Shown piece by piece: positions 18,306 through 49,959 of a stretch of 64,000 bases of DNA. The position numbers and the translations under genes are program-made. Origin of the DNA: Macrostomum hystrix (taxonomy: Eukaryota; Animalia; Platyhelminthes); NCBI GenBank assembly GCA_950097015.1, contig CATNEN010000001.1, positions 13,702,001-13,766,000 of the forward strand, given 5' to 3'. Positions within the stretch are counted from its first letter, which is position 1; each line of letters opens with the position of its first letter. The notes under the pieces were generated by a model. That model saw nothing but the letters and a program-made list of their open reading frames with translations. It was not told the origin of the DNA and ran no database searches.

Positions 18306-18355
18306 CTAGCTGATTAATTGATGTGAAATCATTCTATTTAAATAAACAAATATGC

Positions 18356-18650: not shown

Positions 18651-18683
18651 TTGGTGAGCCCGACACCCGCCATTCCGTTTTAA

Positions 18684-19388
18684 ATGGCGCTTCCTACTGA
18701 GTCATCCGTAGCACTCAAGCTGCCCACGTTTTGGGCTGCACAGCCACGCGCGTGGTTTATTCAGGCGGAGGCCCAGTTCCAGCTGCGGGGCATCAGCCAG
18801 GACGACACCAAGTACCACCACTTGGTCGCCTCGCTTGACCAGCGGACCGCTGAACGCCTGCTGGATGTCCTGGAGAGCCCTCCGGACACCAACAAATACG
18901 GCAGGTTGAAGGAGCGCCTGCTCGGCTCTTTCAGCCTCACCCGGCAGCAGCGAGCCAGCCGCCTGCTCAGCATGTCCAGCCTCGGAGATCGCCGTCCGTC
19001 CGAGCTGATGGACGAAATGCTGGCCCTGCTGGGCGACCATCGGCCTTGCCTGCTCTTTGAAGAGCTTTTCCGCCAGCAGCTGCCCGCGGACATCCGGATG
19101 GCGCTCGCTTCTGCAGATTTCGAGGATCCCCGGGCGGTCGCGCAGCTCGCCGACCAGCTCTGGGCCAGCCGACCGCAACCAATGGCCGCCTCTGCGCACC
19201 TGGAGGACCTGCCCGAGGTTTGCGCCGCGCGACAGGCTGCTCGGCCTCGCGCCAAGTCGCCCCGGCCGGGACACCGCGGCAGCCGCACTCCGGAGGTGTG
19301 CTATTTCCACCGCAAGTTCGGCGCGAAGGCCAGGCAATGCGAGCAGCCCTGCAGCTTCTCGGGAAACGGGCTGGCCGGCCGTCAGTGA
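18684..19388 (+). CDS. gag: Gag (234 aa) with CHCC-type knuckle
   Basis: KLPTFW..PRAWF.QAEAQF N-terminal motif; [18 protein letters not shown]. Confidence 0.9.
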
Positions 19389-22300
19389 ACATCGCGGCGG
19401 CCGGCAACCTGCTGCTCATCCCCGACGTCCAGTCCGGCCGGCGTTTCCTGGTGGACACGGGCGCCGAGGTCAGCATCTTCCCAGCCTCCGCGGACGATGC
19501 CCGCGCCCGCTCGCCGGGCCCGCCCCTGTTCGCCGCCAACGGAAGCCGAATTCGCACATTCGGCAGTCGCAGCCTCACCCTAGACATCGGCCTGAAGACC
19601 TGCACTTGGTCGTTCGTGCTGGCCGAGGTCTCCAGGCCGCTGATCGGCGCCGACTTCCTGCGCCACCACGGCCTGCTAGTGGACCTGCCGAACCGCCGTC
19701 TCCTGGACGCCAGCTCCCTGGCCAGCGTGCACCTGCTGCCCGGTTCCGGTTCTGCACCGCAGCTCGCCGCCGCCGTGGCCAAGGACCCGTACAGCCGACT
19801 GCTGGCGGAGTTCCCCAGCATCACGGAGCCCAGTTTCATCAGGGCCACGCCGCGGCACGGCGTCGAACACTGCATCCCGACGACGGGCCCTCCGGTACAT
19901 GCCAGGGCGCGCCGCCTGCCACCCGACAAGCTGGCTGCAGCCAAGGAGGAGTTTCGCAACCTGGAGCAGCTCGGAATCGTGCGGCGGTCCAGCAGCCCGT
20001 GGTCGTCGCCGCTGCACATGGTGCCTAAGGCTTCCGGCGGTTTCCGGCCCTGCGGCGATTTCAGGCGTCTCAACGACGCCACGGTGCCAGACCGCTACCC
20101 TGTGCCGCATATCCAAGACTTTTCGGCGCGGCTGACCGGCTGCACCGTGTTCTCTAAGATTGACCTGGTGCGCGGCTACCACCAGATCCCAGTCGCCGAG
20201 GCCGACATCCCGAAGACCGCCGTAATAACGCCCTTCGGGCTGTTCGAGTTCCTCCGCATGCCATTTGGCCTGAAAAACGCGGCACAGGCCTTCCAGCGCT
20301 TAGTGGACTCGATTTGCCAGGACCTGCCAGCAGTTTTCGCCTACATCGACGATTTCCTGGTGGCCAGCAACAGCCTTGAGCAGCACGAGGAGCACCTGCG
20401 GCAGCTGTTCCAGCGCCTCGCTGACAACGGCCTGTTGCTGAACCCGGCCAAGTGCCAGTTCGGCCGCAGCCAGATCGACTTCCTGGGCCACAGGATCAGC
20501 GCCGCGGGTGCCGTGCCGCTGCCGGACAAAGTCGACGTCATCGCCCGATTCGCGCCGCCCACGACGGTGAAGGGCCTCCAGGAGTTCGCCGGCATGGTGA
20601 ACTTCTATCACCGCTTTGTGCCCCGCGCTGCCCAGCTGCTGCGCCCGATCTACCAGGCCATGTCCGGCAAGGGGAAGCTGGTGCAGTGGACGCCAGAGCT
20701 GACCGAGGCTTTCGACAATACCAAGCGAGCGCTCGCTAACGCAGCCATGCTGGCGCACCCCAGGCCCGAGGCGCCGATGGCCCTCACAGTCGACGCTTCC
20801 GACACGGCCGTCGGCGCCGTCCTCGAACAGCACGTCGGCCTCGCCTGGCAGCCACTTGCCTTCTTCAGCCGCCAGCTGAGGCCAGCGGAGCAGAAGTACA
20901 GCGCTTTCGACCGCGAGCTTCTGGCGCTGTACCTAGCGGTCCGCCACTTTCGTTTCTTCCTGGAGGGGCGCCCATTCACCGCCTACACGGACCACAAACC
21001 GCTGGCCGCCGCCATGGCCAAGCTGTCCGACCCGTGGTCCGCCCGACAGCAACGCCACCTGGCGTACGTTAGCGAGTTCACCACGGACGTCCAGCACATC
21101 GCCGGCAAGGACAACCCGGTGGCCGACGCGCTGTCCCGCTGCACCGTGGCCAGTGTGCTACCTGGCGTCGACTATGCCGCCATGGCGCGGGTCCAGCAGG
21201 CCCCCACCGAGCCACACTCCGGGCTTCGGTTGGAGCGAGTGAGCCTCCGCGCAGGCTTGGAGTTGCTCTGCGACGTCTCCACCGGTCGGCCCCGCCCGCT
21301 GGTGCCGCCTGATTTCCGACGGCCGGTGTTCGACGCCATCCACGGCCTCGCGCACCCCTCCATCCGCAGCTCCCGCCGCCTCGTCGCCGACCGTTTCGTC
21401 TGGCCCGGCCTCAAACGGGACGTCGGCCTTTGGGCTCGCAGCTGCGTCGCCTGCCAGACGGCTAAAGTCCAGCGGCACGTGGTCAGCGAGCCGGACAGCA
21501 TCCCGGTGCCTCGCGATCGTTTCGCACACGTGCACATCGACCTGGTCGGCCCGCTGCCGCCGTCGCAAGGTTTCACGCACCTGCTGACCGTGGTCGACCG
21601 TTTCACGCGCTGGCCGGAAGCAATCCCGCTGGCCGACACCTCCGCGGCCACCTGCGCCGGCGCCTTCATCACGCACTGGGTCGCCCGTTTCGGCGTGCCT
21701 GGCGACCTCACCTCCGACCGCGGCCCGCAATTCACCTCGGAGCTGTGGGCGAACGTCTCCCGCCTGCTGGGCATGCAGCTGCACCAGACGACGGCTTTTC
21801 ATCCACAGGCCAACGGGCTGGTCGAGCGTTTTCATCGACATCTCAAGGCCTCCTTGATGGCGCGGCTGACAGGGCCGTCCTGGACTACCGAGTTGCCCTG
21901 GGTGCTGCTGGGCATCCGCACGGCGCCCAAGGAGGATTTCGGAGTTTCTTCGGCCGAAATGGTGTACGGCGTCCCACTGGCGGTGCCGGGCGAGTGCCTG
22001 CAGGCCGGCCCACCCACCGCGAGCCACGACGGTTTTCTGACCCACCTGCGCCAGGCCGTGCAGGTTTTCCGGCCGCCACCGACCTCCCAACACGGTCGCC
22101 GTGCCACCGCCTGGCCGACTGCCCTGGACGCCTGCACGCACGTTTTCGTCCGCCGCGACGGGCACCGGCCGGCACTGCAGCCGCCTTACCTCGGCCCCTT
22201 CAAGGTGCTGAAGCGCGGCGCCAAGGCGTTCCTCCTCGACCTCGTCACCCGGCAGGACCACGTGTCGGTGGACCGGCTCAAGCCGGCAACGCTCGACCCA

Positions 22301-22609
22301 ACCAGCCCGGCTCCGACGCCGCAACTTCGCCCGCGCGGCCGGCCGCCGCGGGACCCAACGACACGCCCGCCTAGCGTTCCCGGCACCAAAGCAGAGCCGG
22401 CCGCCACTCCACCGGTCACCCCTCCGCCGGTTCCTCTGCGTCGGCGCCAGCCGCAGCGCCGGTGCCGGCGGGTACCGAAGGCCACCGCTGGGGGGGAGCC
22501 CTGTGGCGGTCAAGGGCAAGTGCACTCGGTGGCAGCCACTTGCAAGCCGTTCTGCCCGCCGACTTCTCACACCACCCCACGTCTGCACGCGGCCAACCCC
22601 GGGGGTTAG
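19361..22609 (+). CDS. pol: Pol (protease-RT-RNase H-integrase), -1 frame relative to gag
   Basis: LVDTGA protease; YIDD RT; VDAS...ELLA...TDHKPL RNase H; HHCC then HIDL, SDRG, GLVERFH integrase; GPY/F motif. Slippery heptamer GGGAAAC at 19361-19367. Confidence 0.95.
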
Positions 22610-22796
22610 GGGTGGGCGCCACCCCTCCCCAGCGTGGCGTGTTTGGGCGGTGTGACCTTGACTTTTTTACCGCTTGTTTACGCGATGGCCGTATAAGACT
22701 GTTTGCGTGCGCCTCCTTCTGTTTATCCTTTTCCGCGTTTCACTTTGCTCTCCGCAAATATACGTTTCGCACGCAGTAGCTAGCTACCACGCTACA
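22502..22796 (+). repeat. 3' LTR
   Basis: Direct copy of the 5' LTR, followed by TSD ATGC. Confidence 0.95.
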
Positions 22797-23260
22797 ATGC
22801 AGTATATAATAGCTTGTATTTGCCAAGTATAGTTAACTGCAATAATATTGCTGTCAATGCAATCTAAAGCATTCACACTATTGCTTTTTGTCGTAGAAAT
22901 TAAAGTTAAAAGTTTATTTTTGCTAATAATATAATAATACAATTGCTGCATTGTATTCATCTTGTTTTTTTATTTTTTTTATAAAAACGCATGTTTTAAT
23001 CACTACTAAGCAGAAAGTAGAATAAAAAACTTGCCCAGAAAATTAGCCTGAGTGGCCTATCTAGTGTTTATAGTATCTGTGCTCACATCTGAATTTGCTT
23101 GCGAATATTGAAAACTAGTTTTTACTGTTTACGACTTGTGCAAAATAATCAATTAACTCTCTTTTCCTTAAAATTATTATACCTCACTGTTTGCAAACGT
23201 TCTTTACTATTAATGCTTGACATGTACATTTATTGTGCCAATTGAAACATTGTTTAAGAG

Positions 23261-24040
23261 TTGTATTCTTTTACTGGTGAAACAGGTGCTGCTGTAATGG
23301 ATTTTGCCGAGGGCCATGTAACTGCTGCTGTACAAGTCCAACCTGTATGGGTTCCTTTTTCTTCGTGTCGCGTTGAGAATGTACGAGGTGACGGCAACTG
23401 TTTTTTCACGTCCATATTGAGGCAATTACAAGAACTGCCAGGTTTTTCCGCCTATCAATCGCTAAGCGTAGAAAATTTTCGAGATGCGGTTGCTGCAGAA
23501 TTCGAGCAATGGGTGCTTCGCGATGTCAATAATCAGGAAAGAATTATGCAAACAGGACTGAATTGGGAAAAAGTGCGCGACGATACAAGGCGTCCCCGTA
23601 TGTACGTGCCATGCGGAGTTCCAGAACTAATTGGCGAAGTGTTGCAGCTAGAAGTGTTTATTTATCAGTCAAACATGCTTAATCTAGCGCGGCCTGGCCA
23701 TTATTCCCGAACGAATATAGGAGAACGTTTGGCTACTATTCGGTTGTTGTTTAATCCTGGTAGTCGAACTTACGAAATCGTTCGTGTCAATGATTTGGAA
23801 GTGAATGAAGCAAGCTCAGTTCGGCCGACTGGCCAAGGAGAATTGGGAGCCAAGAATGTGGAAATGCCCCCTCTCAACGAGAATGTTCGTGTTGTCGAAG
23901 ATCCTGTTGTGATGATGCCACCTCCAGCTCCACCAATGAAGGCTTTTGAAAAGGTTGCAGACTGGACCCGAGTTCAAAGTAGGCATTGGAAGGGACGTAG
24001 TAGAAATCAAGCGAAGTCCTTACTTTGCTTCGGAAAATAA
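23261..24040 (+). CDS. OTU-like cysteine protease domain ORF, probably Helitron-associated and decaying
   Basis: NVRGDGNCFFTSILRQL...FRDAVA is the OTU catalytic-Cys motif. Same strand and upstream of the Helitron Rep/Hel remnants. Confidence 0.7.
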   Translation: MYSFTGETGAAVMDFAEGHVTAAVQVQPVWVPFSSCRVENVRGDGNCFFTSILRQLQELPGFSAYQSLSVENFRDAVAAEFEQWVLRDVNNQERIMQTGLNWEKVRDDTRRPRMYVPCGVPELIGEVLQLEVFIYQSNMLNLARPGHYSRTNIGERLATIRLLFNPGSRTYEIVRVNDLEVNEASSVRPTGQGELGAKNVEMPPLNENVRVVEDPVVMMPPPAPPMKAFEKVADWTRVQSRHWKGRSRNQAKSLLCFGK

Positions 24041-27069: not shown

Positions 27070-29640
27070 GTGTGTAAGGAAAAGTTTCCTGGAAAATATT
27101 ATAGCATCGATTCTGAAGACATGTGCGATCGTTGTTTTAAAGATGACAATGAGCCGAAATCGTTTAGCCAAGAAAACAATGCGATTCCGATGTTGGAGCA
27201 GCCAGAAGAGTTGCAAGATTTGAGTGTAGCAGAGCAAATGTTGATTTCGCCAGTTTTGTCGGTTATTGTTGTGGCACAAATTTTTCCGCAAAAGCAAACA
27301 AAATCGAGAGGACACGGAATCATGTTCCCTTAAGATCAGTCGCACGTTTTGCAAGAGCTGCCAAGACGATCCTGCCAGTTGTTTTAATGTACGACGAAAG
27401 AGCCCGTGTCCAGCCTGGAGAAGCGCAAAGTGGCTATTTGCACAATGAACTATTTGCGAGTTCGACGCGACAAAGTGACTAATGCGATGCGCCATTTAAT
27501 GGCAAATAACAAGTACTTTAGACAGTATCAAGTTTCAATGAATCATGATGCGTTGCTACAGCTGCCTGAAGATGGTTTGCTCATCAAATAGAATGTATGA
27601 TTGTCGAGATGCAGTCTGACAATGAAGTCAATTTCGAGGCGGCACAACAAAAAGGCGGTTCAAGGAGACGAGACGAACGAGCTGGAGGAAACAATTTGTT
27701 CGCTGTTGGAGACTCCTTTGCACCGATTGGAATCGGCAGTACGAGACAAATTTCTGAGTGAAAAATTGAAATGGCCAGCAAGAATCAACGAGCCAGTAAA
27801 CGAATTTCAGGAAGAAGGATATTTTAGATTGGCTTATCCTCATCTCTTTCCAGATGGAGCAGGAGATTAAAGTACGCCACGCAATTTTTGACTAAGTTGT
27901 GGCGACTATGCAAAGCATTTGATGCAATTCCGGTGTCCAAGATTTCGTACCGATTTGCGGTTTAAATTTTACATTGAAAATATGGTGATGCGTTGGAGAG
28001 CGCTGCAAGTTGGTCGCGTGTTTGTGCACGACAACAAGTATGCTAGATTAAGTGCCAAGGAAATTGTTGTGCCGCGAATTACCGAGGAAATTACCGACTC
28101 TTTTAGAATTGCAACGAGATGAGAAGCTTTTGTATATTTCTATCGGCGATGACCGGCCGCGAGTTAATATATAGCGAACAGGGAAGAGTGGTGAAAGGAA
28201 CATAGACAGACAAAAACGGACTAAAACGAGTAAGATAAAAGTGCAATAAACAAATTGTGATGCAAAACAAGCACGTTAAAGTTCATCGGGTCATTCCATA
28301 GAGTTAAGGTTAAACGCCACCTCATCTTCCCCCTTCGAATCGAATCGGCGGGATGCCTCGGTTAGCACGAACTGGGTAGCGGGGCTCTGGTCTCTCGTTT
28401 GGCTCGCCGATCACGCTCTGATGGTCATGAAGGAGGTCGCCCGGCTGATTTTCGAAGGCTGTTCAGTTTGCTGCTGCTCGTTAGGCCGGTGCGGTGCGGA
28501 CTCATCAAGCGGGTGCTGTCCTGGGTCAGTTGGCTGCCCCTCGATAACAGGGCTGAGCTGGTCAGCGTGAGCTAGTGTGACCTGGCCTCCTTGCCGCGCG
28601 ATCAGTGCTGTGTTGGTGCCCTTCTGGGCAACGAACTCGGCTCGCTCTTGGACCTGCTTGCCGCCGGGCGTATACCAAACGCTCGCTCCGATTGGCGTCT
28701 GCATGGAAATCGGGTTGCGTAGCTGCCGTCCCATGAGCTGCGCCGGGCTCTGCAGCCGGCCTGCGTGCGGTACGCACCTATAGTTCAAGAGCAGCCGGGA
28801 CAGGAATGAGTCATACGTTTCCGACTGCTGGTCCCACGCTTTCGATGCTCTCTTGATGGATTGCACCATCCGCTCTGCTAACCCGTTTGATTGCGGATGC
28901 CGCGGCGGCGTCTTCAGGGCTCGACAGCCGATTCTCTCTAGCCAGGTGAGGAGATTCGCGTCGTGGAACTCGGCAGCGCAACTCGGTTCTCGCAAAGACA
29001 GACTGCAATACTCGCTTAACGGTTGCCGCGTCTCGGTTCGGCACCCGCACAGCCTCTGGCCAGCCAGACATCGCGTCGACCAGAATGAGCAGTAGTCCGA
29101 CATTCGGCACACTCGCGTGGTCCATATGCACTCTGTGCCAGGGCTCCTGCTCCTCCGGCCACCGGTGGACAGTCGCTGTGCCTTTTGGTTTCCCCGCGCA
29201 GGTTCGAATCCTGCTTGCGACGCCATTGTTGTGCCGCGAATTACCGAGGAAAGTGGACTCTTTTAGAATTGCAACGAGATGAGAAGCTTTTGTATATTTC
29301 TATCGGCGATGACCGGCCGCGAGTTAGTATATAGCGAACAGGGGAGAGTGGCGGAAGGAACATAGACATGGACTAAAACGGACTAAAACGAGTAAGATAA
29401 AAGTGCAATAAACTAATTGTGATGCCAATCAAGCACGTTAAAGTTCATCGGGTCATTCCATAGAGTTAAGGTTAAACGCCACCTCAGAAATGATTTAAGC
29501 ACTAAATGACCCGGCAGTATTGGCTAGTGTGTCAGTTCGAGCATCGGATTTGCGAGGCACAAGCGCTTATTGTCAGAGTAAAGGACGGCAATTGGAAGCC
29601 ATGATTCGAACGCTTGGTGTTTCTCATTTTTTACCATGTT
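27070..29640 (+). pseudogene. Helitron Rep/helicase N-terminal remnant (Zn-binding, DUF6570-like and Helitron-like N regions)
   Basis: CKEKF...CDRC...FSQENN..P..ELQDLSVAEQMLISPV; LRVRRDKV..A...L..NN.YF; PVNEFQEEGYFRLAYPHLFPDGAGD; LRGTSAY...LEAMIRTLG. Multiple stops and frameshifts; split by an LTR element. Confidence 0.85.
28065..29486 (-). mobile_element. Internally deleted Ty3/gypsy element retaining only an integrase remnant
   Basis: 260-bp LTRs 28065-28324 and 29227-29486 with a few differences, 5-bp TSD GAAAT, tRNA-Ser-like PBS, PPT GAAGGGGGAAGA, and PWHRVHMDHA...LVDAMSGWPEA / PPRHPQSNGLAERMVQSIK integrase motifs. Confidence 0.92.
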
Positions 29641-29824
29641 CAAATGATTTTGTTCCTAAAATGTTGAAAGGGGGGGTCTGGTCAAGGCAAAGGGGTGTCT
29701 GGTCCAGCCAAGCCCCAGCCAAGGCCCCAGCAAGACCAAAACGGACCTCTGTTGTACGTGTATTCTAAATCGGTGCGAGTTTTCCCCAGAGACGACGACC
29801 CTAATTGGGATAGCCTTTATAAAA

Positions 29825-29879
29825 TGTTCTATATTTAGAAATACACTACGGAGATCAAAAAAAAGGTCATTCGGCTTTT
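29825..29879 (+). repeat. Left terminal direct repeat of the 20-kb element
   Basis: TGTTCTATATTTAGAAATACACTACGGAGATCAAAAAAAAGGTCATTCGGCTTTT, 53/55 identical to 49905-49959. Confidence 0.85.
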
Positions 29880-30917: not shown

Positions 30918-30937
30918 CTGCAGCAGAACTCCAATTA

Positions 30938-31530
30938 TAAGAGTTTATGGACTTAGAGAATTTACAATCAGTAAATTCTCGACCGTCCCAAGGCTTAAAT
31001 AGTGTGGTGAGATTGGGGCGGGATAGAACGAGCCAGTTAGTATATACTCTAAAGAAAGGTGCGCGCTGTACACTTTCGCTGGAGGCAATATGACGGAGAT
31101 TATATCTAGATCGGGCTTGATGACGACTAGTTACTATAATAGATGACCGAAAATGCATGGTGTTTCTATTTTTAGCTTTAGGCGCACCTTTCTTAAGAGT
31201 ATATACTGGCTTGCGTGCCCCATAGACTTCAATAGGCTGCCATTTAAATACACACGAGCCAGCTTGTATATATATACTCTTAAGAAAGGTGCGCCGTAGG
31301 CTAAAAATAGAATCGAATCGCCCGGGGTTTAGCCAGCCCGGCTATATACTAGCCCCCATATGCCGACGACGACGACGAAGTCAAGTTGCGAAAAAACAGC
31401 TCGCGCACCTTTCTTTAGAGTATATATATAATACCTGCATTTACTCCACCAGCCACACAAACTAAGCTCTGGGGACGGTCGAAAATTTTATCACTGACAT
31501 GATAAAATTCTCTAAGTCCGTAAACTCTAG
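30938..31530. repeat. ~590-bp imperfect palindrome with four alternating TATATACTCT(A/T)AAGAAAGGTGCGC boxes
   Basis: 30939-31000 pairs with ~31460-31530, ~31041-31066 with ~31401-31426, and 31163-31217 with 31253-31312. Centre near 31235. Confidence 0.85.
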
Positions 31531-31895
31531 TTTATACGTATAGACCGAGTGGGCAAGCAGCATCGGCTGCCTGAATCACATATCCGTACATATATGTGAT
31601 GGATGTCGATTCGAAAACTGACTTGGCTGTGAATAGACTCAAATGCTGGTATTTTCGCGAAAAGTGTATTTATTTTCGCAAAAATACTGATATGTTTCCA
31701 AAACAAAGGTAAGGGTAGTATTTTTGCAAAACGTTCCTGAACTACTCTCTATATTCGCTGAATAAAAATTATCAGTCTGTTAGAAAAAAAATTGTATTAG
31801 TGGTCAAGATTTCACCATTTGCAGACAAACGTCATTAAAACTCGAACATGCGAAATAAAATAAATATAAATAGCCAGATAACACACTATTTGATT

Positions 31896-31981
31896 GTTAG
31901 TGATCTGGCGTGCAGGTCTAAGGCATTTCTCTCTAATACCAGTGGCTCGGGTTCGAATCCCGGTCAGCCTTACGCTTTTTT
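31896..31981 (+). ncRNA. tRNA-like (Pol III type 2) unit, copy 1
   Basis: A-box-like TGGCGTGCAGGTCTAAGGC, T-arm CGGGTTCGAATCCCG, oligo-T terminator, upstream TATAAATA. Anticodon arm is not canonical. Confidence 0.55.
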
Positions 31982-32164
31982 GTTATTAAAAAAACAGCTA
32001 ACATTTTACTATCAATGAAAATAAATCTTTACTAGAAATCTATTTTTTTATATTCGAATCCCCACTATTTGTGGATCCCCATTATTATTAACGTACTTTT
32101 GCTCGAATACGCCAGTTAAGAAAAGAAAAGCAATATAAATAGCCAGACAACACACACTTTAATT

Positions 32165-32250
32165 GTTAGTGAACTGGCATGCAGGTCTAATGCATTGTCG
32201 CTAGTACAAGTGGCTCGGGTTCGAATCCCATTCACCCAACGCATTTTTTT
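32165..32250 (+). ncRNA. tRNA-like unit, copy 2
   Basis: Same A/B boxes (TGGCATGCAGGTCTAA; GGGTTCGAATCCC). Ends GTTAGTGAA/TTCACCCAAC can pair. Oligo-T follows. Confidence 0.55.
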
Positions 32251-32718: not shown

Positions 32719-35434
32719 ATGTCAGCATTTCGTGGCCGTGGAAAGAAGGCTCGTGTGGATGCCAGCATTGCTACACCGGATGCTAATGGTCTACGCCAGA
32801 CTATGATCGTGGATTACTTTAGATCTCAGCAGTCAACCGATCGTCCTACTGGCGCAGCATCTAGACCGAGTGTGCAAGCATCATCGGCATCATTTACAGC
32901 AATGGCAGGAACGGCTGGTCGGGCATCGGCTGCCTTCACTGTTCCCCGCCTTGCAGTAATACAGCAGCAGCAGCAGTCGAAACAGCAGCAGCAGCAGCAG
33001 CAGCCGAAGCAGCAGCAGCCGAAGCAGACTGTCCCATCGAGTGCAATTCGGAAGCGTCGATATGCCCGATCGACTCTACGCAAGCGGACGCGTACAGTTG
33101 TCGATTTGGATGCTTCGTCTAGCAATTCATCGTCGTCTGATGCTGAAGACACTGGCGTTGGATCTCTAGTAGCCATGCGACAGCCTCTGGTTATTGTTGC
33201 CCAACCAATTTGTGGCGCCGGCGACCATGCTGATCGCATAGAGTCCACGCCTAAAGTGCTATCATCTGAAGATGACTCAGCGGACGACTTGCTAGCAGAC
33301 GACGTACAGCTGGAGATTGTGGACGAGTGGACGAGCAATACAGACAATGTAGAGTCTAATACTGCCCCTGTTTTGACGGCCTCTAATAGTTCAGCCTTGT
33401 CATCGCAGCTAGTCGATGATAAGTACAAAACAGAGGTGGCAGAATTATTGCGCGTTAATGGCGAGTCGACTATTCCTAAAAATAGTGCCGCACTTGGTGC
33501 CTGTCCGACTTCGCCAGATTATGCGCCTCGCTCTACACCGGCAATGTCTGTCATCGAGAATGGGACAACATCCGATGCTGATGAACCAGTTCGCGCTGTA
33601 TTCTCTCCAGCGTATGTCGACGCTTCTCAACCAAAAGCGCAACAGTCGGGACGACTGCAGCAATCGCAGCAGCAGCAGCAGCATCAACAGCGAGAGCAAC
33701 AACCGCAGCAACAGCCGCAGCAGCAGCAGTGGCGGCAGCCGCTGCGGCAGCAGATACAACGGCGTGAACGGCAGCAGCAAGAAGTTGGTGGCGTGGCATT
33801 TGCTCCGATAGCCGATGAATATGCGTTGTGTCGTTCGACATCACCACTTCTACGGCTATGTCCTCGAGCTCCAATTACCGACTACGCCTCTTTAACAGCA
33901 GAGGGCAGGTCGGTTCTTATGACTAGAAGGACGCTACATCTTATAGAGATTGCATTCATCTCGAGCGATGTGGAAAAATTCAAGGCGTTTCTAGAAGATG
34001 AATTGGTAGCTCCATGTGCACAGTTTGCCATCGGCGCAACATCATGTATTCAGGTTGACATGCTGACCAGCGAAGAAATCCGAGCGCGTCGTCAGCAGAA
34101 ATACAACATGTCAATCCGTGAATGTTTAGGAGCTCCGAATCATCCCAATGGTTTGCTGATGTTCCTGAACCTGCGCCAACCAGAAGATGGTTACACTGTT
34201 TACTGCGGACTGCATGCCCTTTTGATGGAATCTGCGGAAGCTTCGGCCTACCTGCATCCTACAATGTGTAGAATGACAGTGTCTGGTGTACGCAGTGCGT
34301 CAAGTGCAATTAAGCTTGTTACCAGTACGGACGAGTTTCCAGCTCTTTTCCGCGTTTCTACTCAAGAGTGCAGCTTGCTGACCAAGGCCTTTTGCTGGGT
34401 TGCTGCTCATGAGACGTCATCTACTGAGCCTTTGCTAGATAGTGGCTTCATGTTCGAACACTTTCGTGTCAGACAAGAGCTCAGCGATTACTTTAAGGTG
34501 ACTCAGATGAAACGCGTAATAGCAACAGAGGTGCTAGCTGGTTGCCAAAACTGTCGCCCTACTGCCGCTGCCGCCGCCGCCGCTGCTGATGATGCTGCAA
34601 CAGCCGACTATGCGAGGACGACCTTGCCTACTCAGCTGGAGGTATGCAAAATATTATAATACATGACATTTTTTAGCACACGTACGAGTATTGATCATTG
34701 AATTTTTGCTGTTGTTTTAATTCAAATAATTATTACTTTTGGACAATTAATTAATTAATTGTATGCGAACCTACCTAACAACACAACAGGTCTCTGCTGC
34801 TGCTGCTGATGTTGCTGCTTCCGCTGCTACTGCTGTTCAAGTATTTGATGCCGCCGTCGCTCATGTTCCCCGGTTGATCGCCGCCGCCACCAACGTGTGC
34901 CCAACTGTAAAGGCTGTGTGCAGCGCGTTGCAATTGCCAACTGGTGTCGTCTATCTATACGGCCCGTCTGGCGTTGGGAAGACCCACTCTGTGCAAAGCC
35001 ATCTCGGTTCTACGAAAGTGCTGAATATCCAGGTGCAGAAGCGGTCTAACACGTTTATGTTTGACAAGCTCTGCGAGACTATACACACTGCCATGTTTAT
35101 TGACGAGCTACGCCCGCAACTGTTTGATGACACATCTGAAGTCATGTGCACACTACTTCGTTTGGTCAATGGAGACACTTTTGAAGTCAATGCTAAATAC
35201 AAGGCTATTCGACACGTCTCTTGGCTCAATCGACTGTTAGTGCTTGCTGGGCATGCTCCGGTCAGTGCGTATTCGATGGACTTTCAGCGCCGATTAGAAC
35301 CGACACCTGATGGGCACAAGCGTCCGGTAGTTGCCATCTTCATTGGTCATTCCCTCAGTGCCGACTACCAATGCGATGGACAATGCCACCCAATACGCAA
35401 TGTGTTTGGCGATCACCCGGACCGGCGAGTATGA
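32719..35434 (+). CDS. Rep-like/superfamily 3 helicase protein, 2 exons (32719-34641, 34790-35434), ~855 aa
   Basis: Phase-0 GT-AG intron joins the two ORFs in frame. Walker A GPSGVGKT, Walker B MFIDE, B'-like LLRLVNGDTFEVNAKYK, motif C position LVLAGH, Arg finger FQRRL. Low-complexity Q/S-rich N-terminus. Confidence 0.8.
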
Positions 35435-35814: not shown

Positions 35815-36500
35815 GTAAATAGCGGTATTTTTGCAAAAGTTATTAAAGTCGTGTGAATGGCTACATCTTAAGGTATTTTCGCGAAAAGACTGCTATCCTA
35901 TTAAACGCAGGTAGTAAAGGTAGTTTGCGGCTGTGACCTGGAAAAGTTATTAAAGTAGTGTGCATGGCTACATCTTAAGGTATTTTCGCGAAAAGACTGC
36001 TATGCTATTAAACAAAGGTAGTTGGCGGTATTTTTGCAAAAGTTATTAAAGTAGGTTATATGCGTGGCTATATGTTAAGGTATTTTCGCGAAAAGACTGC
36101 TATGCTATTAAACAAAGGTAGTTGGCGGTATTTTTGCAAAAGTTATTAAAGTAGGTTATATGCGTGGCTATATGTTAAGGTATTTTCGCGAAAATACTGC
36201 TATGCTATTAAACGCAGGTAGTAAAGGTAGTTTGCGGTATTTTTGCAAAAGTTATTAAAGTAGTGTGCATGGCTACATCTTAAGGTATTTTCGCGAAAAT
36301 ACTGCTATGCTATTAAACAAAGGTAGTTGGCGGTATTTTTGCAAAAGTTATTAATGTAGGTTATATGCGTGGCTATATCTTATGGTATTTTCGCGAAAAT
36401 ACTGCTATGCTATTAAACAAAGGTAGTTGGCGGTATTTTTGCAAAAGTTCTTGAAGTTGTGTGCGTGGCTATATCTTAAGGTATTTTCGCGAAAATACAT
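35815..36500 (+). repeat. Tandem array of ~100-bp units with palindromes GTATTTTCGCGAAAATAC and TTTTGCAAAA
   Basis: About seven consecutive units visible. Confidence 0.93.
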
Positions 36501-36941
36501 GCATATTATTAGACTAAGTATATTGTACTTTTTTAACCATAGACATATTTAGTATTTCTGCAAATTGCCAAGAGTCATGAGTGCATTTTTTTCGCGAAAA
36601 GACTATATATTATCTATATATTGTATTGAATACCTGTGAATGAAAAATAATGACAGTTTTTTTGCAAAAATACTAACGATACGATGATGAACATATTTTT
36701 GCGAAAGAACATGTTCTAAAACAAATACAAACTGCGAAATTGCTTTGAGTACTAACATACAAACAATAATGCTTAACATAGTGCTGATGATTGTTGGTGA
36801 TGGTATTTTCGCGAAAAGATTAGTGTATTTTCAATCATTTACAACACAACACATATGTAGATATCAAATAGTATTGATAATCAGAAGCTTTATAATATCA
36901 CTGTAATTAATCATAGTGAATGTATTTTTTATAATATCATT

Positions 36942-38830: not shown

Positions 38831-39211
38831 TCATTGTTCGATGTACCAATAGCGAACTCCATGTATGATGAGCTGAAGTTCAGCTTGGGCTTCCTCTAAA
38901 AGCTCTAGCACTTCGATGATGTCTTGTGCTTCATCGTCTCTTACACCAGTCACGGACAAGACAGCCTGATAGTCTTCTGCTGACCGGTGCTTTTGCAGCC
39001 ATTGTTGAGTGCGCCGTAATAATAAACATAGCTCATTAGCGTTGTACTCTGCATTTGGAACACCGCGTTGCAAACTAGGTAGCTGCTCGAAGCACCCTCG
39101 ATGCGCTATGAACCGGCCAATGCAATCTATGCGACAGCTGAGAAAGAGTTGAAATACGCGCGGCTGAAGATACATTTGTACTAACTGCATCTGATCGGCA
39201 ATTAACGACAT
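38831..39211 (-). CDS. Small orphan protein, paralog of 43842-44261
   Basis: Aligns without gaps to the 139-aa ORF (C.I.C...F...RG..EQL..LQR..P.AE.N...L...WL..H...Y..L.VT...EA.D..E.L.LLE...ELQ.I.HG..YW). Confidence 0.8.
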   Translation of the reverse strand: MSLIADQMQLVQMYLQPRVFQLFLSCRIDCIGRFIAHRGCFEQLPSLQRGVPNAEYNANELCLLLRRTQQWLQKHRSAEDYQAVLSVTGVRDDEAQDIIEVLELLEEAQAELQLIIHGVRYWYIEQ

Positions 39212-39499
39212 GTTCAGTCAGTTAGTAAATCAAGTAAAGCAAAAAATAGTTTTGTTAAAAAAAATTCTAAACTTTAATCGTTTAATAAGAAGCGATATAC
39301 TAATATTAATATTAATGCGATAAGAAGCCCCCATAGAGTATAATTTATCGAACACAGGTGAGTCAGTCCAGAGACAAATCAAATGAATACAGGCCAGTCT
39401 GGGTATTAAGAACAAGAAATCTTTCTCGGCCAAGAAATCAGCCCACAACCAACGCCATACGGACAGAAGCTACAGGATAGCGAGCGACACAGCACGGAC

Positions 39500-41531: not shown

Positions 41532-43040
41532 TCAATTGCCGCACAGACATTGTCGCGTCTTGATCAATCGGCCGTGTCTTGACACTGTCGTAGTCAATAT
41601 ATTGTGTGTGCATATACAATACGAGCGTCTAGATGCACGCAAAGCATCAGTCGCAGGTATAGTCGATTGCGATGACTGCACATCACTTATTGACATTGCG
41701 ACATCGTCGTCAAGGTCGGCGGTCAGAACCAATTCTGCTGCGGCATCGGCATCTCCTTGCGGCACTGTCACATCAGATAACTGTTCATCCGAATCGTTGT
41801 TGACATCAGCAATGATGATCTCCATTGCGACATCAAACATGTCATCGATGTGACTTGCTTCGGAATGGGCAGCGAAATCCGATCCAGCAGCAGCAGCAAC
41901 ACAATCCGTATTGGTAGACAGAAATTGCATAGCGGCAGGTTGCATCAAGTCGAGCAGAATCTGCGCCATTTCAATGTCATCACCGTGACCGGATGATGTA
42001 CCAATACACACTGACTGCGTGCTGACATTGGCTTCGATTGAAACATCGGTCACACCGTTTTGTGCACTGACACCAACTGTCGCTGTTGTTACTCTTGGCG
42101 CACAGACAGGAATAAAAACAGGTAGCGGCACCGGAACGAAATACGGCACCTCGACAGTTGGAATCGGCAACATAGGCATCGCTGGTGATCCGATTGGCTC
42201 AATTTGCAACATTGGCATTGATGGCGATGGTACTGGCGAGTGATCCGATTGGATTGTTTCTGCTGCTGCTTCAATCGCATTGTGATTAAGCGGAGTAGAT
42301 GTACAAATTGGATGCCGTACTGATCCAATTGACACGCTGTCCGCTTGGCTCACATGTTCAGCAGGCTCGTCAGTACTTGTTGCATAGATGATGCCTGATT
42401 CAGCTGCGCTATCTTCTATGATGATAGTTTCTGCTGGCTGCTCTGCTGCTGACTGCTCTGCCGCTGACTGCTCTGCTGATGGCTGCTCTGCTGCTGGCTG
42501 CTCTGCTGCTGGCTGCTCTGCTACGGGCTGCTCTGCTACTGGCTGCTCTGCTGCTGGCTGCTCTGCTGCTGGCAGTCGACGGGCAATGTAGCGCTCGTGC
42601 ATATAGTCGACAATCTCGCCGACCACAGCTGGTAGTGGATCCAGTTGTTCAAGCTGGACCACTTCGCCCATTGCCGCTGCTCCCGCCACTGCCACTGGCT
42701 GAGCTGGTTGGCCACCGACGCGACGCTGCGGATTCCGCTTACATCTATATAGATGATGCAACATGTTGGACGTTATTTTGTTGCAATGCGGACACGCTAG
42801 CACACGTCCACCGGCAGCGACATCCACACCAGCCCGCTGTAGTTGCAGCATCTTCCAGACGGCACTTCCACGCTCCTTAACCGACGCGAATAGCGATGGC
42901 CTTTGACCAACAGGTAGGACTGTCCAGTCAAATTCGGCATGGACAGCTTTATGCGCCTCTATAAAATGTCTTCGCATCATATTGGCGCGGATTTGCTGGC
43001 CGCAGAAATGGCAGAAGCGGAGTCCGTTGTTGTCTTCCAT
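41532..43040 (-). CDS. Double zinc-finger protein (502 aa), N-terminus paralogous to the recombinase gene
   Basis: CHFC...RHFIEAH...FDW..LP...RP...VWK...CPHC...HHLYRCKRNP, then AEQP repeats and an acidic disordered tail. TATA-like sequence upstream. Confidence 0.8.
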   Translation of the reverse strand: MEDNNGLRFCHFCGQQIRANMMRRHFIEAHKAVHAEFDWTVLPVGQRPSLFASVKERGSAVWKMLQLQRAGVDVAAGGRVLACPHCNKITSNMLHHLYRCKRNPQRRVGGQPAQPVAVAGAAAMGEVVQLEQLDPLPAVVGEIVDYMHERYIARRLPAAEQPAAEQPVAEQPVAEQPAAEQPAAEQPSAEQSAAEQSAAEQPAETIIIEDSAAESGIIYATSTDEPAEHVSQADSVSIGSVRHPICTSTPLNHNAIEAAAETIQSDHSPVPSPSMPMLQIEPIGSPAMPMLPIPTVEVPYFVPVPLPVFIPVCAPRVTTATVGVSAQNGVTDVSIEANVSTQSVCIGTSSGHGDDIEMAQILLDLMQPAAMQFLSTNTDCVAAAAGSDFAAHSEASHIDDMFDVAMEIIIADVNNDSDEQLSDVTVPQGDADAAAELVLTADLDDDVAMSISDVQSSQSTIPATDALRASRRSYCICTHNILTTTVSRHGRLIKTRQCLCGN

Positions 43041-43239
43041 TGCAGCTTAAATATAGTCGTTCGCTGGCTAGCCTGCTGAATAATCGACAGAGTGGTCGTT
43101 GTGGCTGAATTTTAATTATCGATTTGCGTGCGCGCGCGCATATATTTACCTAGCACTGCTCATATCCTGTACAGAGCAGCAGTCAGACACATAGACATAG
43201 ACAGGCATCGTCAACTGGGTCTAAGCTATTTCCATATAT

Positions 43240-43600
43240 AGTATTTTCGCGAAAATACTGATATGCTCTATAAACAAAGGTAAGGGCAGTATTTTTGCAA
43301 AAGTTCTTAAAGTAGTATGCATGATTACATCTTTGGTAATTTCGCGAAAATACTGCTATGCTATTAAACAAAGGTAGTTGGCGGTATTTTTGCAAAAGTT
43401 CTTAAAGTAGTGTGCATGATTACATCTTTGGTATTTTCGCGAAAAGACTGCTATGCTATTAAACAAAGGTAGTTGGCGGTATTTTTGCGAAAATTCTTAA
43501 TGTAGTGTGCATGGCTACATCTTATGGTATTATCGCGAATGCAGATACGCGGCGGTTGAAGACAATAAGAAGACAATATTTTTGCGAAAGTACTTTAAGT
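43240..43600 (+). repeat. Second array of the ~100-bp palindromic unit
   Basis: About four units, same orientation as 35815-36500. Confidence 0.9.
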
Positions 43601-43841
43601 ATTCATGATGACTATATCTAATGGTAATCAATAACCAAATATGACTTGACTTCATTATATTTTATTATTATTCATGCCGCGAATACAACTTGCAACAGGT
43701 TCACTCATGTATTTTTGCTTGAGCGAATTAATTGGGTTAAATAAATAGCTGGCATTAATTAAACGGCGAACAGGAAACTACAATTAGCTGTATTAAGTCT
43801 ACCTAAAACTAGTGCTGCTACTGCTGCTGCTGCTGCTGCTG

Positions 43842-44261
43842 TTACTGCTCAATTCGATATCGGCGGCTCCGGAGCAACTCTCGCAGTCTAGCCCTTTGCT
43901 GTACGCCGCGCCAGTAGTCCAGGCCGTGTAGAATGTGCTGCAGCTCCAAACATGTGTCCTCCAGCAGGCCTAGCAGCTCGGCCAAGTCGAAGGCCTCGTT
44001 CTCTGTTAGGCAGGTCACCTCCAGGATGGTCTCGTAGCCCGCAGCTGTCTTGTGTTGTAGCAGCCAGTCCAGGAGGCTCTTCATCAGGGTGTGCAGCTGG
44101 GTGACGTTCAGCTCAGCAGTCGGGCAGTGGCGCTGCAGGCAGGTTAGCTGCTCCAATCGTCCTCGGTAAGTCAGGAACGGGGCCAGACAGGCGATGTCGC
44201 ATCTGGCCAGGAGTGCCACGGTGGCCGGCGAGCCGAACAGCGCCACAGGATGCGCATTCAT
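43842..44261 (-). CDS. Small orphan protein, paralog of 38831-39211
   Basis: Protein similarity retained despite different GC content and codon usage. Confidence 0.8.
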   Translation of the reverse strand: MNAHPVALFGSPATVALLARCDIACLAPFLTYRGRLEQLTCLQRHCPTAELNVTQLHTLMKSLLDWLLQHKTAAGYETILEVTCLTENEAFDLAELLGLLEDTCLELQHILHGLDYWRGVQQRARLRELLRSRRYRIEQ

Positions 44262-44589
44262 CGTGAGTTCTACACAACCAACAATGTCGTGAGTGCAACA
44301 GCAGCGCGTCTAACACTAGCAGAAGTAGAATTAGAATAGGAAGCAGAGTTCTAAATGGAAAGTAAATACAGTATTTTCGCGAAGGTAAGGGCAGTATTTT
44401 TGCAAAAGTAGCGTGACTACATCTTATGGTATTTTCGCAAATGCAGATACGTATTCTCAGACAAAGTGACTTTTTACCATAGACAAATTTAGTGTATTTC
44501 TGTAAATTGCCAAAACTCACGAATGAGTTTTTTCGCGAAAAGACAATATGTACTATATTGAATACTTGTAAATGAAAAATAGTGTCTGT

Positions 44590-45200
44590 TTTTGCGAAAA
44601 TACTGCTATGCTATTAAACAAAGGTAGTTGGCGGTATTTTTGCAAAAGTTCTTAAAGTAGTGTGCATGGCTACATATTATGGTATTTTCGCGAAAATACT
44701 GCTATCCTATTAAACGCAGGTAGTAAAGGTAGTTTGCGGTATTTTTGCAAAAGTTATTAAAGTAGTGTGCATGGCTACATCTTAAGGTATTTTCGCGAAA
44801 ATACTGTTATGCTATTAAACACAGGTAGTTGGCGGTATTTTTGCAAAAGTTATTAATTAAGTAGGTTATATGCGTGGCTATATCTTAAGGTATTTTCGCG
44901 AAAATACTGCTATGCTATTAAACAAAGGTAGTTGGCGGTATTTTTGCAAAAGTTCTTAAAGTAGTGTGCATGGCTACATATTATGGTATTTTCGCGAAAA
45001 TACTGCTATCCTATTAAACGCAGGTAGTAAAGGTAGTTTGCGGTATTTTTGCAAAAGTTATTAAAGTAGTGTGCATGGCTACATCTTAAGGTATTTTCGC
45101 GAAAATACTGTTATGCTATTAAACACAGGTAGTTGGCGGTATTTTTGCAAAAGTTCTTAAAGTAGTGTGCATGGCTACATATTATGGTATTTTCGCGAAT
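44590..45200 (+). repeat. Third array of the ~100-bp palindromic unit
   Basis: About six units with higher-order (~303-bp) periodicity. Confidence 0.92.
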
Positions 45201-45602: not shown

Positions 45603-48600
45603 TCAGATGTCCAGTCTAGTTCTCGAACTGATCAGGCGCCCAGATCGCGTCCTGTATTCCGTTCGACGAACCACGAGTAGCTCAGAATCCGAGCTGGTCT
45701 CATTGTCATTGCTGACGTGCTGTTGTTCACCATCATCACCTTCTTCGTCGATATCGTCGTGAACGTTGCCTTGTCCAGCCGATGCTCCAAACATCGGCGG
45801 TTGACTAAGACTGCGTCGTCTAGACGATGTAGACGAAATAGGCGATGGTGTTGCTGAATCGATGGCCGGCTTTGTCGACTCGGTGTTGTCCGTTGTTGAA
45901 CATCTAGGACTAACCGTAGCGGGTCGCATTGTCGACATTCGAGGTCGCTTCTTGTCAGTGGCCTTGCAAATGGACGACCGTCGAGTGCGTCGCTTGCGTG
46001 TGCGTTGACTATGTGGCATCACAATGTCATCAGCAGGTAGAGGAGATGCAGCCGATGAATTGGTTGCGTCCAGATCAACGCTACAGGCGGCAGAGCGACG
46101 ACGCTTCGTGTCGTTTTCGGCTGTTGGATGTCGTTGATGTCGACGATCAAGTGGCCGATTGTGACAGAATGTCTCGAAGCATCCTCTGACGTCGTCGGCG
46201 ACCATCAGATTGGCCTGCTGTTTGGCCAGGCGTCCATACGCATTCACGACACAGTTGCGCGATGTGTCGTACAGAGGCACCAGCTGGTCTAGCTTGTCGG
46301 GATGCGCGTGCACATAGGCCGACAGTACATTTCGACGACCATCGCCCATGCGATAGGGCCGATCGATGACCAACTCGGCGCCCTGCTTGACAAGCGTGCT
46401 GAAACTTGTCGAGTCACGCTGCTTGCCACGATGCGTAGGAAACAACAGACATTTGCCTGGCCTGACATGGATGTTGCACTCGGCGAAGTATGGCAATAGA
46501 AAGTTGTCTATCCATTGCAGTAGACATTCGCCGACTTTGCGTGGCGCAGTCCAGCTTGCACCTTTACCACGACCGCCCTTTTTGTGTGCCACTTCGGTAG
46601 GCGGCAGGACTGTGACAATGGTGGAGGACGTTGATACGCCGCTATTGAGTGCAGCATCCAAATAGCAACGCCGGATCGCGACCCAAGGACGTAGTCGATT
46701 GGCATGGACAATTGCTGCACAGAAGAAGGCCAGTTCACGCGTGATCGGCATAATAAATGTATTCCATTTGCCGACGACGTTGGCCATTCGACGTGCACAT
46801 TGTCCAATGCGACCCCAGTAGCCCTTCACGGGTAGATGAGACCACGAATGTTTGGCGACCATATCAATCAGGCAGTCTAGCCGGTTGTGAATGATGCGCC
46901 ATTCGTCAGCGGTCAGGAACTTATCCGTGTAGGACAGCTGGCGTTCGTCATCGCGCAGGTGATAGATATTCTCTTGCCGCTGACGAATCAATCCAATGCA
47001 AGCCTGTACATGTTAAAGGGTTATGAAAGATAAAGTACATGCAGTAGCTTCTACAATTGTTCGTGATATATCAACTAACATAGTATACAATATGCGACAC
47101 AACAACACTGCTCACCATGATTGATTCGATGCGGCTAGTCAACAGACCAGATACTGCAGTCTGATGATAGAGAATACCATCTTTGCGCGGGTCAGGACAG
47201 GCAGGCAATTCTGACGCGGCCTTGACAATGTCGGCATGCACGTTGGCAAACAATCCATCTGGTGGCGAGGTCAATTGGAACGCGTTCATAACACTAGGAG
47301 CACCGAAGTCGTTGTTGGCTGCTAGAAACTTCTTCGCGCCGCTCAATATGTTATGAAGCTCGTTCATTCGCTGTCCAACAGTCGATGGTTTCCAGATATG
47401 GCGCTTCACCATCTCGTCCAAATCGAATTGGATGCGCGCTGGATTGATGAACCACATCTCGACTGTGACATTGATTGCGTGTAGGAGACGACTAGTTGTA
47501 GCATGATAGTTCCGCTGGATTGCTTTCCTACGGCTAACATGCGATGCGTTCTCTTCTACACAGCAATGACCCTTGAACCAGATGTCGCCGACATTGTCTA
47601 GTTGCTTGTACATGTGTTCAGATGCAACGTGGTAGTCTGGGCCGTCGAAAACAACAAGCCGAGACGTCTTGTGCCTCCGTTGCAATACAAGCTCCTCTTC
47701 ACTGACAGAATCATCAGTATTTTCCACGTCAGATTTAGAGGTCTGAGTCTCTGCTTGTCGCTGACTGACAGCATTGGTGACTCCGACCGGAACATAGTCT
47801 GACGTATACTGGAGAATTGCTTCTGTCAGATTGACCAGATTCTGCAAGCTAGTACACACGCGCGGATGCTCAGCGTTGTGGGCTTTCTGCAGAATCTCGT
47901 TGAGGCCGGCCGCATTCAGACGCAGTCCATTGATAAACTCTGTTTGACAGGAAAGTTATAAATATTTGTTGATTATTTTTTTGTCTTTATGTGTAAATTT
48001 AAAAATGTAAAGGCATGTACAACAATATTTTAGACCACTTACTGATCGCTGCCACATTGTCGTTGGCATTATCGAATTCTGGCATCGTACTCGTTTCGTT
48101 TTGCAGTCGCTCGATGTCGTGACTGACAATATCGGCCGTGTAAGATGGTCCGGCACGATCGAAACTAGCCAACACCGTTGCTACTAAAGTAGACGGTGTG
48201 ACAGACGATGCACTGTTGATAATGCGTACAGCATTGGACTGTCCAGCAGAAGACGATCCCGCAGAAGACGCTAACACGACAATAGGCGGCTCAATGTTTG
48301 CACCCGCGTCTATCGAATCAGACGAAGAGTCGTCGCTGTCACTTGACGAACGGGTTGCATTTGCTGCCTCTGTAATTGCCGGTTTACGCTTGCATGTCCT
48401 GGCAATGTGTTTACTGAGATGCTGAACACCTTTGCCACAGTATTGACAATAAGACAAAGATGCATCGGATCCATCCCGACGTAACCGGATGATCTTCCAT
48501 ACGGTCTTTGCCTTGACATCATACGATGCAGTCGCTGCGGGTCGTCGAACCTCTGGGATCGTGCTCCAATCAAAAGCCGAAACGAAGTCCGAATGGTGTC

Positions 48601-48664
48601 TAATAAAATGCCTTACAACATTCGAGTTCGGAATTGAAGCTTTGCAGACTGGGCACGTATCCAT
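45603..48664 (-). CDS. Zinc-finger plus tyrosine recombinase-like protein, 3 exons (48664-48043, 47939-47116, 47003-45603), ~948 aa
   Basis: Two phase-compatible GT-AG introns join three ORFs. YR-type motifs in order: HANRLRP (Arg I), AHKK (Lys), LLFPTHRGK, MGDGRR (Arg II), LYDTSRNCVVNAY (Tyr). Both His positions are substituted. Confidence 0.7.
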
Positions 48665-49247
48665 TTCGCTGGTTATTGTTTGATGCTGTTCCAAAGTGCT
48701 TATGACAGAAGAACGTTTACACAGATTTGTAAGCGAGCGCGCTCGGCTTCTGACTTAAGCTGCTATCGTGACCCGTACGACAGTTTAATCACATAAACTA
48801 TCATTCAAGGTTGGTCTATGGCGAAAAAGCATAATATCGAACTCATAATATATTTAACGTTGCTATATTGTCTACTCATAGTAGAGTAGGTAGTTTCGAA
48901 CAGAAAATGAACATAAACACGAATAATTATTTGATTTCTGAATGTCTTGTCTATCTATATGTTGAAAAAGCACTTAAATTATTGTTGATTATTCCAGAGG
49001 TATTTTCGCGAAAGTACATATGTATTCTCAAACAAAGGTTAATGCAGTCTTTTTGCGAAAATACTTTTGTGCTAATATGATTACTCTTTCTAGTGGTATT
49101 TTCGCGAAAAGACATATGTGTCCCATATAAAAGTAAAAGAATTATCAAAAGAAGGTAAACGCCGTAAACGTTAATAATAATGGGGGTTCACAAAAAGTAG
49201 TTTGGTAGTAATTAGTAGTAAATTATTAGCATATTTTTTTTAATTGA

Positions 49248-49335
49248 GAAAAATGCGTAGTGCCGACTGGGATTCGAACCCGATCCACTGCTACTAAAAA
49301 TGAATGCTTTAGACCTGCATGCCAGATCACTTGCA
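49248..49335 (-). ncRNA. tRNA-like unit, copy 3 (inverted)
   Basis: Minus strand TGGCATGCAGGTCTAAAGC...GGGTTCGAATCCC...TTTTT, within a ~330-bp inverted homolog (49165-49490) of 31741-32095. Confidence 0.55.
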
Positions 49336-49904
49336 AAATTCCGGCGTGTTATCTGGTTATTTATATTGATTTTCTTTCGGATGTTGGATTTTTAATCATT
49401 TTTGTCTGCAAATAGTGGAATCTTGATCACGTTTTCAATATTTTCTAACAGAACAATAAGATTTATTGAGAGAATATAGATAGTACTGCTGATTACTATT
49501 ATTGTTAGTATTTTCGCGAAATACGGATACGTATTCAAACGAAGGTAGAACAGTATTTTTGCAAAAGCACTTTAAGTACTTTAGTTACATGAGATGATGT
49601 TTTCGCAAAATGCTTCAAGTGAAGTACCAATGTTAATGCAGGGCGTTATACGTTTGCGAAAGAACGAAGGTAAAAAGTTAGTCCGTCCATGCAAACTCGG
49701 TGCATTCGCGAAAGCACAATGAAATGGTGCATGAAGGACAAAGTGATATACATTAGTACTTTCGCAAACATGACTACATGCTCCGAAGTGCCCGATTGCA
49801 AAAGGACATAAGCTTAGCTGTTCTAATAATAGAAATACACTACGGAGATAAAAAAATGTCATTTCGTATATGCGTCAGTATTTTCGCGAAATGACTACCT
49901 ATTG

Positions 49905-49959
49905 TGTTCTATTTTTAGAAATACACTAGGGAGATCAAAAAAAAGGTCATTCGGCTTTT
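49905..49959 (+). repeat. Right terminal direct repeat of the 20-kb element
   Basis: 53/55 identical to 29825-29879. Related partial copies at 49819-49860 and 29899-29927. Confidence 0.85.

Follow-up and report, generated by a model that had tools for sequence, protein, structure and literature searches.

A spliced SF3 helicase gene with a candidate HUH-derived domain beside a recombinase-like gene in a ~20-kb candidate element of Macrostomum hystrix

Introduction

Papillomavirus E1 and polyomavirus large T consist of a long low-complexity N-terminus, a domain without nicking motifs and a superfamily 3 (SF3) helicase (PMC6668415, PMC13595969). We describe a gene with the same arrangement in a 64,000-nucleotide stretch of Macrostomum hystrix DNA (the window, whose positions serve as coordinates throughout), where it lies within a ~20-kb candidate mobile element. 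A dead HUH domain upstream of the helicase is our best guess for this real, constrained SF3 gene in an unusual element. We tentatively propose that the product, an SF3 helicase with a likely HUH-derived non-cutting module, is the replication initiator of the element, which a likely tyrosine recombinase would move; this proposal is about as apt to fail as to hold, perhaps slightly more so.

The domain upstream of the helicase, called the orphan domain below, is by eye collinear with the E1 DNA-binding domain. Unlike in E1 and large T, the helicase groups elsewhere, there is no recognised capsid gene and no LxCxE motif, the HUH fold is a candidate only, and the gene sits in a host chromosome beside a recombinase-like gene.

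The nearest helicase is that of CRESS-DNA virus Rep proteins, with which the orphan domain also shares a candidate motif II strand. Rep proteins have about 300 amino acids, whereas the M. hystrix product has 855, lacks HUH/HUQ, YxxK and a stem-loop origin, has Gly in motif C and belongs to a 20-kb element. RepE1 cressviruses of sea anemones have intermediate Rep/E1 proteins and endogenised copies in invertebrates; unlike the M. hystrix element they encode capsids, and their proteins are matched to E1 with E-values of 1e-6 to 1e-12 (PMC11071296).

Our gene resembles U94 of human herpesvirus 6 (HHV-6) and the avipoxvirus apvRep in that it is expressed, is apparently under purifying selection, retains its Walker motifs and seems to have lost its endonuclease motifs independently. 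U94 and apvRep serve as accessory genes in large viruses that possess a replication machinery, whereas ours is the sole replication-type gene of its element. Independent inactivation has been reported for both U94 and avipoxvirus Reps (PMC10193959), so such inactivation is not new.

Cryptons, like the M. hystrix element, are eukaryotic DNA elements with a tyrosine recombinase and no capsid (in our case a likely recombinase and no recognised capsid gene). They end in 4-6-bp repeats (PMC3212892), in contrast to the 55-bp repeats and 270-bp inverted arms found here, and the Crypton paper never uses the word helicase, whereas the M. hystrix element has an SF3 helicase. Polinton-like viruses with a tyrosine recombinase offer a similar pairing, a recombinase plus an SF3 helicase, within integrated elements of 15-25 kb. 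The M. hystrix element differs from them in having introns and a CRESS-like rather than D5-like helicase, and in giving no capsid, packaging ATPase, protease or polymerase match.

Results

Gene structure and constraint

An ATG at 32719 opens a reading frame that extends to 34659, and a second open frame spans 34751-35434. A previous reading of this DNA made from the letters alone (the sequence-only reading) had taken the two as one spliced protein, and the gene model bears this out:

32719-34641, forward strand: helicase gene, exon 1; open frame of 641 codons, contigs covering pieces between 32654 and 35544
34642-34789, forward strand: intron of 148 nucleotides, GT..AG, phase 0, with CTAAC just 5' of the acceptor, inside a poly-Ala linker
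34790-35434, forward strand: exon 2, SF3 helicase
32719-33780, forward strand: low-complexity N-terminal part of 354 amino acids, likely disordered, with poly-Gln and basic clusters resembling nuclear localisation signals at amino acids 9, 111 and 121
33820-34554, forward strand: orphan globular domain (amino acids 368-612), likely with an HUH-derived DNA-binding part and a helical oligomerisation part

The joined exons give a stop-free protein of 855 amino acids. Transcript evidence comes from low-depth contigs of four runs in one study, which carry no RNA label on record; gaps in contig cover were never counted as evidence. In contigs of two of the four runs (X1 and X3), 34643 is followed after two intervening letters by 34797; this is the predicted splice with one Ala codon of the poly-Ala repeat missing, and the frame is kept. 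Two GT..AG introns of the recombinase-like gene nearby are likewise absent from contigs of these runs (joined in 4/4 and 3/4 runs), so the runs behave as spliced RNA. The helicase gene is real, spliced and in frame. The intron had been read as a mark of nuclear adaptation; nuclear transcription is upheld, but small DNA viruses often have spliced genes for Rep or large T, and the intron is therefore no special sign of adaptation.

Intron retention would introduce a stop (34642-34659) and give a 646-amino-acid form without the helicase; no contig shows retention. One X1 contig joins 32826 to 34899 at depth 3 without GT..AG ends, and is an artefact or a deleted copy.

Amino acids 355-612 lie between the low-complexity N-terminus and the poly-Ala linker, and 37% of them are hydrophobic, against 20% in the N-terminal 354. 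The contigs contain 26 coding differences. All five within amino acids 355-855 are synonymous, four of them in the orphan domain, while upstream of amino acid 355 there are 7 synonymous and 14 residue-changing differences among 21 (random expectation about 24% synonymous). The orphan domain thus looks constrained.

The SF3 helicase domain

The P-loop domain had been identified as SF3, which the motifs support:

34961-34984, forward strand: Walker A, GPSGVGKT, amino acid 699
35093-35107, forward strand: Walker B, MFIDE, amino acid 743
35237-35254, forward strand: motif C, with Gly795 in the Asn column
35282-35296, forward strand: Arg finger, FQRRL, amino acid 806, placed by position

Walker A and Walker B have SF3 spacing, and motif B' and the Arg finger align to Rep, E1 and NS1 profiles. 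The motif C Asn was not found in alignment to a profile of 36 full Reps (drawn from 121 motif-bearing open reading frames (ORFs) in 129 loci); Gly795, which the sequence-only reading overlooked, stands in that column. Against this profile the helicase scores 14.2 bits with Walker A, B, B' and C aligned. Pfam gives weak P-loop matches only (RNA_helicase, E 0.006).

The helicase scores 10.0 bits against the CRESS profile, 7.1 against NS1, 5.6 against E1 and 4.7 against large T; these scores were reached by 0, 0, 2 and 0 of 500 shuffles, respectively. In the atlas, exon 2 is grouped with CRESS Rep clusters (0.95, 198/256 features), the E1 cluster being at 0.93. A tree of 50 rows (CRESS 14/34, E1 14/22, large T 14/36, NS1 7/7 and the query) places the query on the CRESS side at 95/88 with a branch of 2.99; it has no outgroup, includes no clade test, and some CRESS rows are possibly mis-cut. 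These comparisons weakly support an origin of the helicase apart from E1 and large T. Judged from its motifs and profile matches, the exon 2 product is a CRESS-like SF3 helicase, with a predicted unwinding activity. The earlier claim of an E1/large-T-like logic of independent origin is upheld for the helicase, which falls on the CRESS side and not with E1, large T or NS1 (weakly and on a long branch), but not for the HUH fold.

Relatives and descent of the orphan domain

A HMMER search of 1.84 billion representative proteins found one relative of the orphan domain (P0003; E 4.6e-5, 30% identity over 115 columns), a 125-amino-acid singleton on a 1995-nucleotide JGI contig. With one detectable relative among so many representatives, the family is missed by standard annotation. 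No further homologue was found in the word index, viral contigs or metagenome contigs, and none in prokaryote genomes, plasmids, phages or the PDB; the metagenome contigs did not yield the locus of P0003 either.

A chain of five CRESS blocks with near-canonical spacing, a post hoc test designed after the register had been seen by eye, selects CIQVDML, YNMSIRE, HPNGLLMFLN and EASAYLHP at 15.8 bits. This score is reached by 2/300 shuffles and 3/387 real decoys and exceeds the medians of E1 (7.5) and large T (10.2); with tighter spacing the shuffles number 7/300. The E1 profile aligns end to end, is collinear with few gaps and has the same second and third strands, with 19/300 shuffles for the two-sequence profile of query and homologue. 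In known proteins, CRESS-like SF3 helicases nearly always follow an HUH-type domain (PMC13595969, PMC6668415). Because of the block chain, the E1 alignment and this architectural prior, we consider HUH descent of the orphan domain fairly probable.

A likeness by eye of amino acids 577-600 to the oligomerisation helices of large T and E1 was dropped, as an ungapped scan did not recover it. A single match to a 7-sequence NS1 profile (1/200), among 16 tests, was taken as chance.

Nicking motifs

The candidate nicking motifs of the orphan domain are as follows:

34141-34164, forward strand: HPNGLLMF, candidate motif II strand and best block (8.8 bits); His475 kept, Asn at the second ligand position
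34240-34254, forward strand: ASAYL with Tyr511, alternative motif III candidate picked by the block chain; no Lys at +3
34288-34326, forward strand: VRSASSAIKLVTS, the motif III helix of the sequence-only reading; no Tyr, VRS..S...VT common to query and homologue

Motif II is neither HUH nor HUQ, the best candidate being HPN (QPV in the homologue). The motif III YxxK is also absent, the query having YLHP or LVTS and the homologue no Tyr at either place. The homologue has Gln at His475, Arg at Tyr511 and Arg at Leu533. Query and homologue both retain a C-terminal helical block and, away from the catalytic positions, one Tyr and two His. All three nicking motifs appear lost, as judged by comparison with one homologue fragment. 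Since no register gives a catalytic set common to query and homologue, an HUH domain here would very probably be dead, that is, predicted to be non-nicking.

Two nonamer forms were searched, and no nonanucleotide stem-loop origin was found with them; TAGTATTAC has one site, at 35707, against 0.57 expected (chance level), and it does not lie in a stem-loop.

The peptides quoted by the sequence-only reading are all in one frame (LIEIAF 33940, QFAIG 34021, HPNGLLMF 34141, KLVTS 34312, FMFEH 34447). Its register, in which they followed CRESS motifs I-III with HUH replaced by GLL, probably was partly wrong; on a CRESS block profile it scored -34.0 and -22.9 bits at the two offsets tried. The motif II strand is identical in every register tried, but His475 of HPN, three residues before GLL, scores as the motif II His, and for motif I the likelier candidates are CIQVDML and QFAIG, not LIEIAF. 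If the domain is HUH, the proposed inactivation holds in that query and sole homologue have no catalytic His/Tyr set in common; another register keeps His475 and Tyr511, an outcome that the reading itself had named as counting against it.

The surrounding element

The helicase gene lies between candidate ends of a ~20-kb element:

29825-29879, forward strand: left terminal direct repeat of 55 bp, candidate left end, 96% identical to 49905-49959
49905-49959, forward strand: right terminal direct repeat of 55 bp, candidate right end
31743-32011, no strand assigned: sub-terminal arm of ~270 bp with an inverted copy at 49216-49485 (78%) and a tRNA-like sequence
35877-36816, no strand assigned: palindrome arrays of ~100-bp units with TTTCGCGAAA, which are candidate sites for protein binding; more such arrays lie at 43245-45104
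45603-48664, reverse strand: recombinase-like gene, three exons, 948 amino acids, no stops; zinc-finger-like N-terminus, tyrosine-recombinase-like C-terminal part
27070-29654, forward strand: left part of an interrupted Helitron; DUF6570 (E 1.2e-8), Helitron_like_N (E 0.01), nested long terminal repeat (LTR) piece
50342-52058, forward strand: right part of the interrupted Helitron; PIF1 (E 5e-18), Pif1_2B, Rep-like motif before PIF1

A tyrosine recombinase had been expected to take over integration, and a recombinase-like gene does adjoin the helicase gene. By eye its residues are R585/587, K623, R705, D728 and Y738, a spacing that is canonical for tyrosine recombinases; both His positions differ. 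The gene likely encodes a tyrosine recombinase.

The helicase gene is the only replication-type gene in the element, which also contains low-complexity ORFs. A family search of the longer ORFs gave no capsid, packaging ATPase, protease or polymerase/primase match, although a very divergent capsid could escape it. TTTCGCGAAA occurs at 27 sites between 30116 and 49882 and at none in the other 44 kb of the window. TTTCGCG in both sets of arrays is also an E2F-type site, so that the arrays could tie transcription of the element to S phase rather than bind its own protein. The Helitron pieces on the two flanks have one orientation, placing the element inside the Helitron. Contigs differ from the window by up to ~14%, which suggests that other transcribed copies exist.

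Relaxed ARAGORN finds three degenerate tRNA-like sequences in the region of the sub-terminal arms (31902-31971, 32166-32240 and 49260-49335); Rfam gives four matches, all far below the gathering score. No lox-like arms are common to both ends of the element. A ~600-bp foldback at 30926-31535, in which four copies of a ~35-bp motif alternate, is a nested miniature inverted-repeat transposable element or a candidate origin. The ORF at 41532-43046 is a paralogue of the zinc-finger part of the recombinase-like gene, with 33% identity between its N-terminal ~100 amino acids and the start of that gene's product, and the ORFs at 38831-39217 and 43842-44309 are small paralogues (40% identical) with no family match.

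An LTR pair (95%) around an integrase remnant is nested in the Helitron at 28140-29486, and the ORF at 23258-24040, with a weak OTU protease match (E 0.03), is perhaps the Helitron start. Elsewhere in the window are an element (5319-12428) in which perfect inverted repeats of 1706 bp enclose a transposase-like ORF, and an intact-looking Gypsy-type retrotransposon with identical 299-bp LTRs (18355-22799).

Discussion

If the protein is a replication initiator, the orphan domain may bind the TTTCGCGAAA arrays or the terminal repeats, and the protein would then assemble as a ring and unwind the excised circle. Host polymerases would copy this double-stranded circle, and the neighbouring recombinase would perform excision and reinsertion. 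In its mode of action the protein would thus be comparable to E1 or large T.

Several results weigh against this proposal. AlphaFold gave no meaningful model of the orphan domain (predicted local distance difference test (pLDDT) 30.0 alone and 32.7 with the homologue). The scores of domain hidden Markov models (HMMs) are at shuffle level (CRESS 159/500, E1 196/500, large T 500/500, NS1 149/500), as is the hhalign result (probability 0.2%). Gapped alignment to profiles of CRESS and of genomovirus-like sequences does no better than shuffles. The post hoc block test falls to 20/300 shuffles once long insertions are permitted, and the E1 alignment of the query alone to 55/300. The homologue is a lone fragment that has no gene context and begins at the central strand. 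ATPase activity is not certain, because Gly795 replaces the motif C Asn. The recombinase-like protein has no family match (including DUF3504 and integrase) and is identified from motif spacing by eye. The variants stem from low-depth contigs of a single study, and the ends and mobility of the element are candidate only because a single copy was read.

The orphan domain may have a fold other than HUH. What is joined to the CRESS-like helicase would then be a decayed primase palm, or an unrelated domain for DNA binding or oligomerisation. Profiles, PDB, atlas and models all lack support for HUH, the nearest atlas clusters carry DUF3626/DUF3841 (0.87-0.90, low recognition), the helicase has a weak DUF5906 match (E 0.025), and bidnaviruses kept the helicase while losing HUH (PMC13595969). 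The HMM test has little power, however, because it also misses true dead HUH domains: with the CRESS profile, shuffles were beaten by 0/10 E1, 1/10 large T and 0/7 NS1 domains. In addition, the block chain scores within the highest 1% of the decoys, the domain shows no DxD motif of a primase, and the helicase stops ~45 amino acids past the Arg finger, where D5-type primase-helicases need more than this for their C-terminal domain. We consider a non-HUH origin rather unlikely.

The same block chain bears on the possibility that the domain, read in another register (Glu468, His475, Tyr511), is a rolling-circle nuclease which has diverged yet stays active, with the element replicating by nicking, since the unsupervised chain picks exactly His475 and Tyr511 (2/300 and 7/300 shuffles). 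We judge this very improbable given HPN as motif II, the lack of a motif III Lys, Gln and Arg at the two positions in the homologue and the lack of a nonanucleotide stem-loop. It is slightly less improbable that the protein is a captured, inactivated Rep that is no longer replicative. A Crypton-like recombinase transposon would then carry it as cargo or be regulated by it, in the way that U94 and avipoxvirus Reps act in their viruses. The pattern reported for apvRep and U94 combines expression and purifying selection with endonuclease motifs that are dead and helicase motifs that are in part retained (PMC10193959); motif C is altered in the query, and Cryptons are mobile with a recombinase alone (PMC3212892). 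Set against this, the Arg finger and both Walker motifs (A and B) remain intact, and the element has no other replication gene.

The novelty lies in where the gene is found. The ~20-kb element around it interrupts a Helitron, has no capsid gene that could be recognised, and contains a spliced recombinase-like gene as well as 27 palindromes that occur nowhere else in the window. Our literature search, whose coverage left out most subscription journals, found no capsid-less eukaryotic element that pairs such a protein with a tyrosine recombinase. It is conceivable, though doubtful, that the element represents a class of eukaryotic mobile DNA not described before, large, with introns and without a capsid, in effect an 'integrative plasmid of eukaryotes', with excision and integration by tyrosine recombinase, amplification as a double-stranded circle and an E1/large-T-like initiator that arose independently from CRESS Rep.

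Why the ancestors of papillomaviruses and polyomaviruses abandoned nicking is described as obscure (PMC6668415). If our proposal is true, a separate lineage also gave up nicking and acquired a recombinase as it did so, which would provide a natural comparison, and a self-replicating capsid-less element would join the short list of eukaryotic recombinase transposons.
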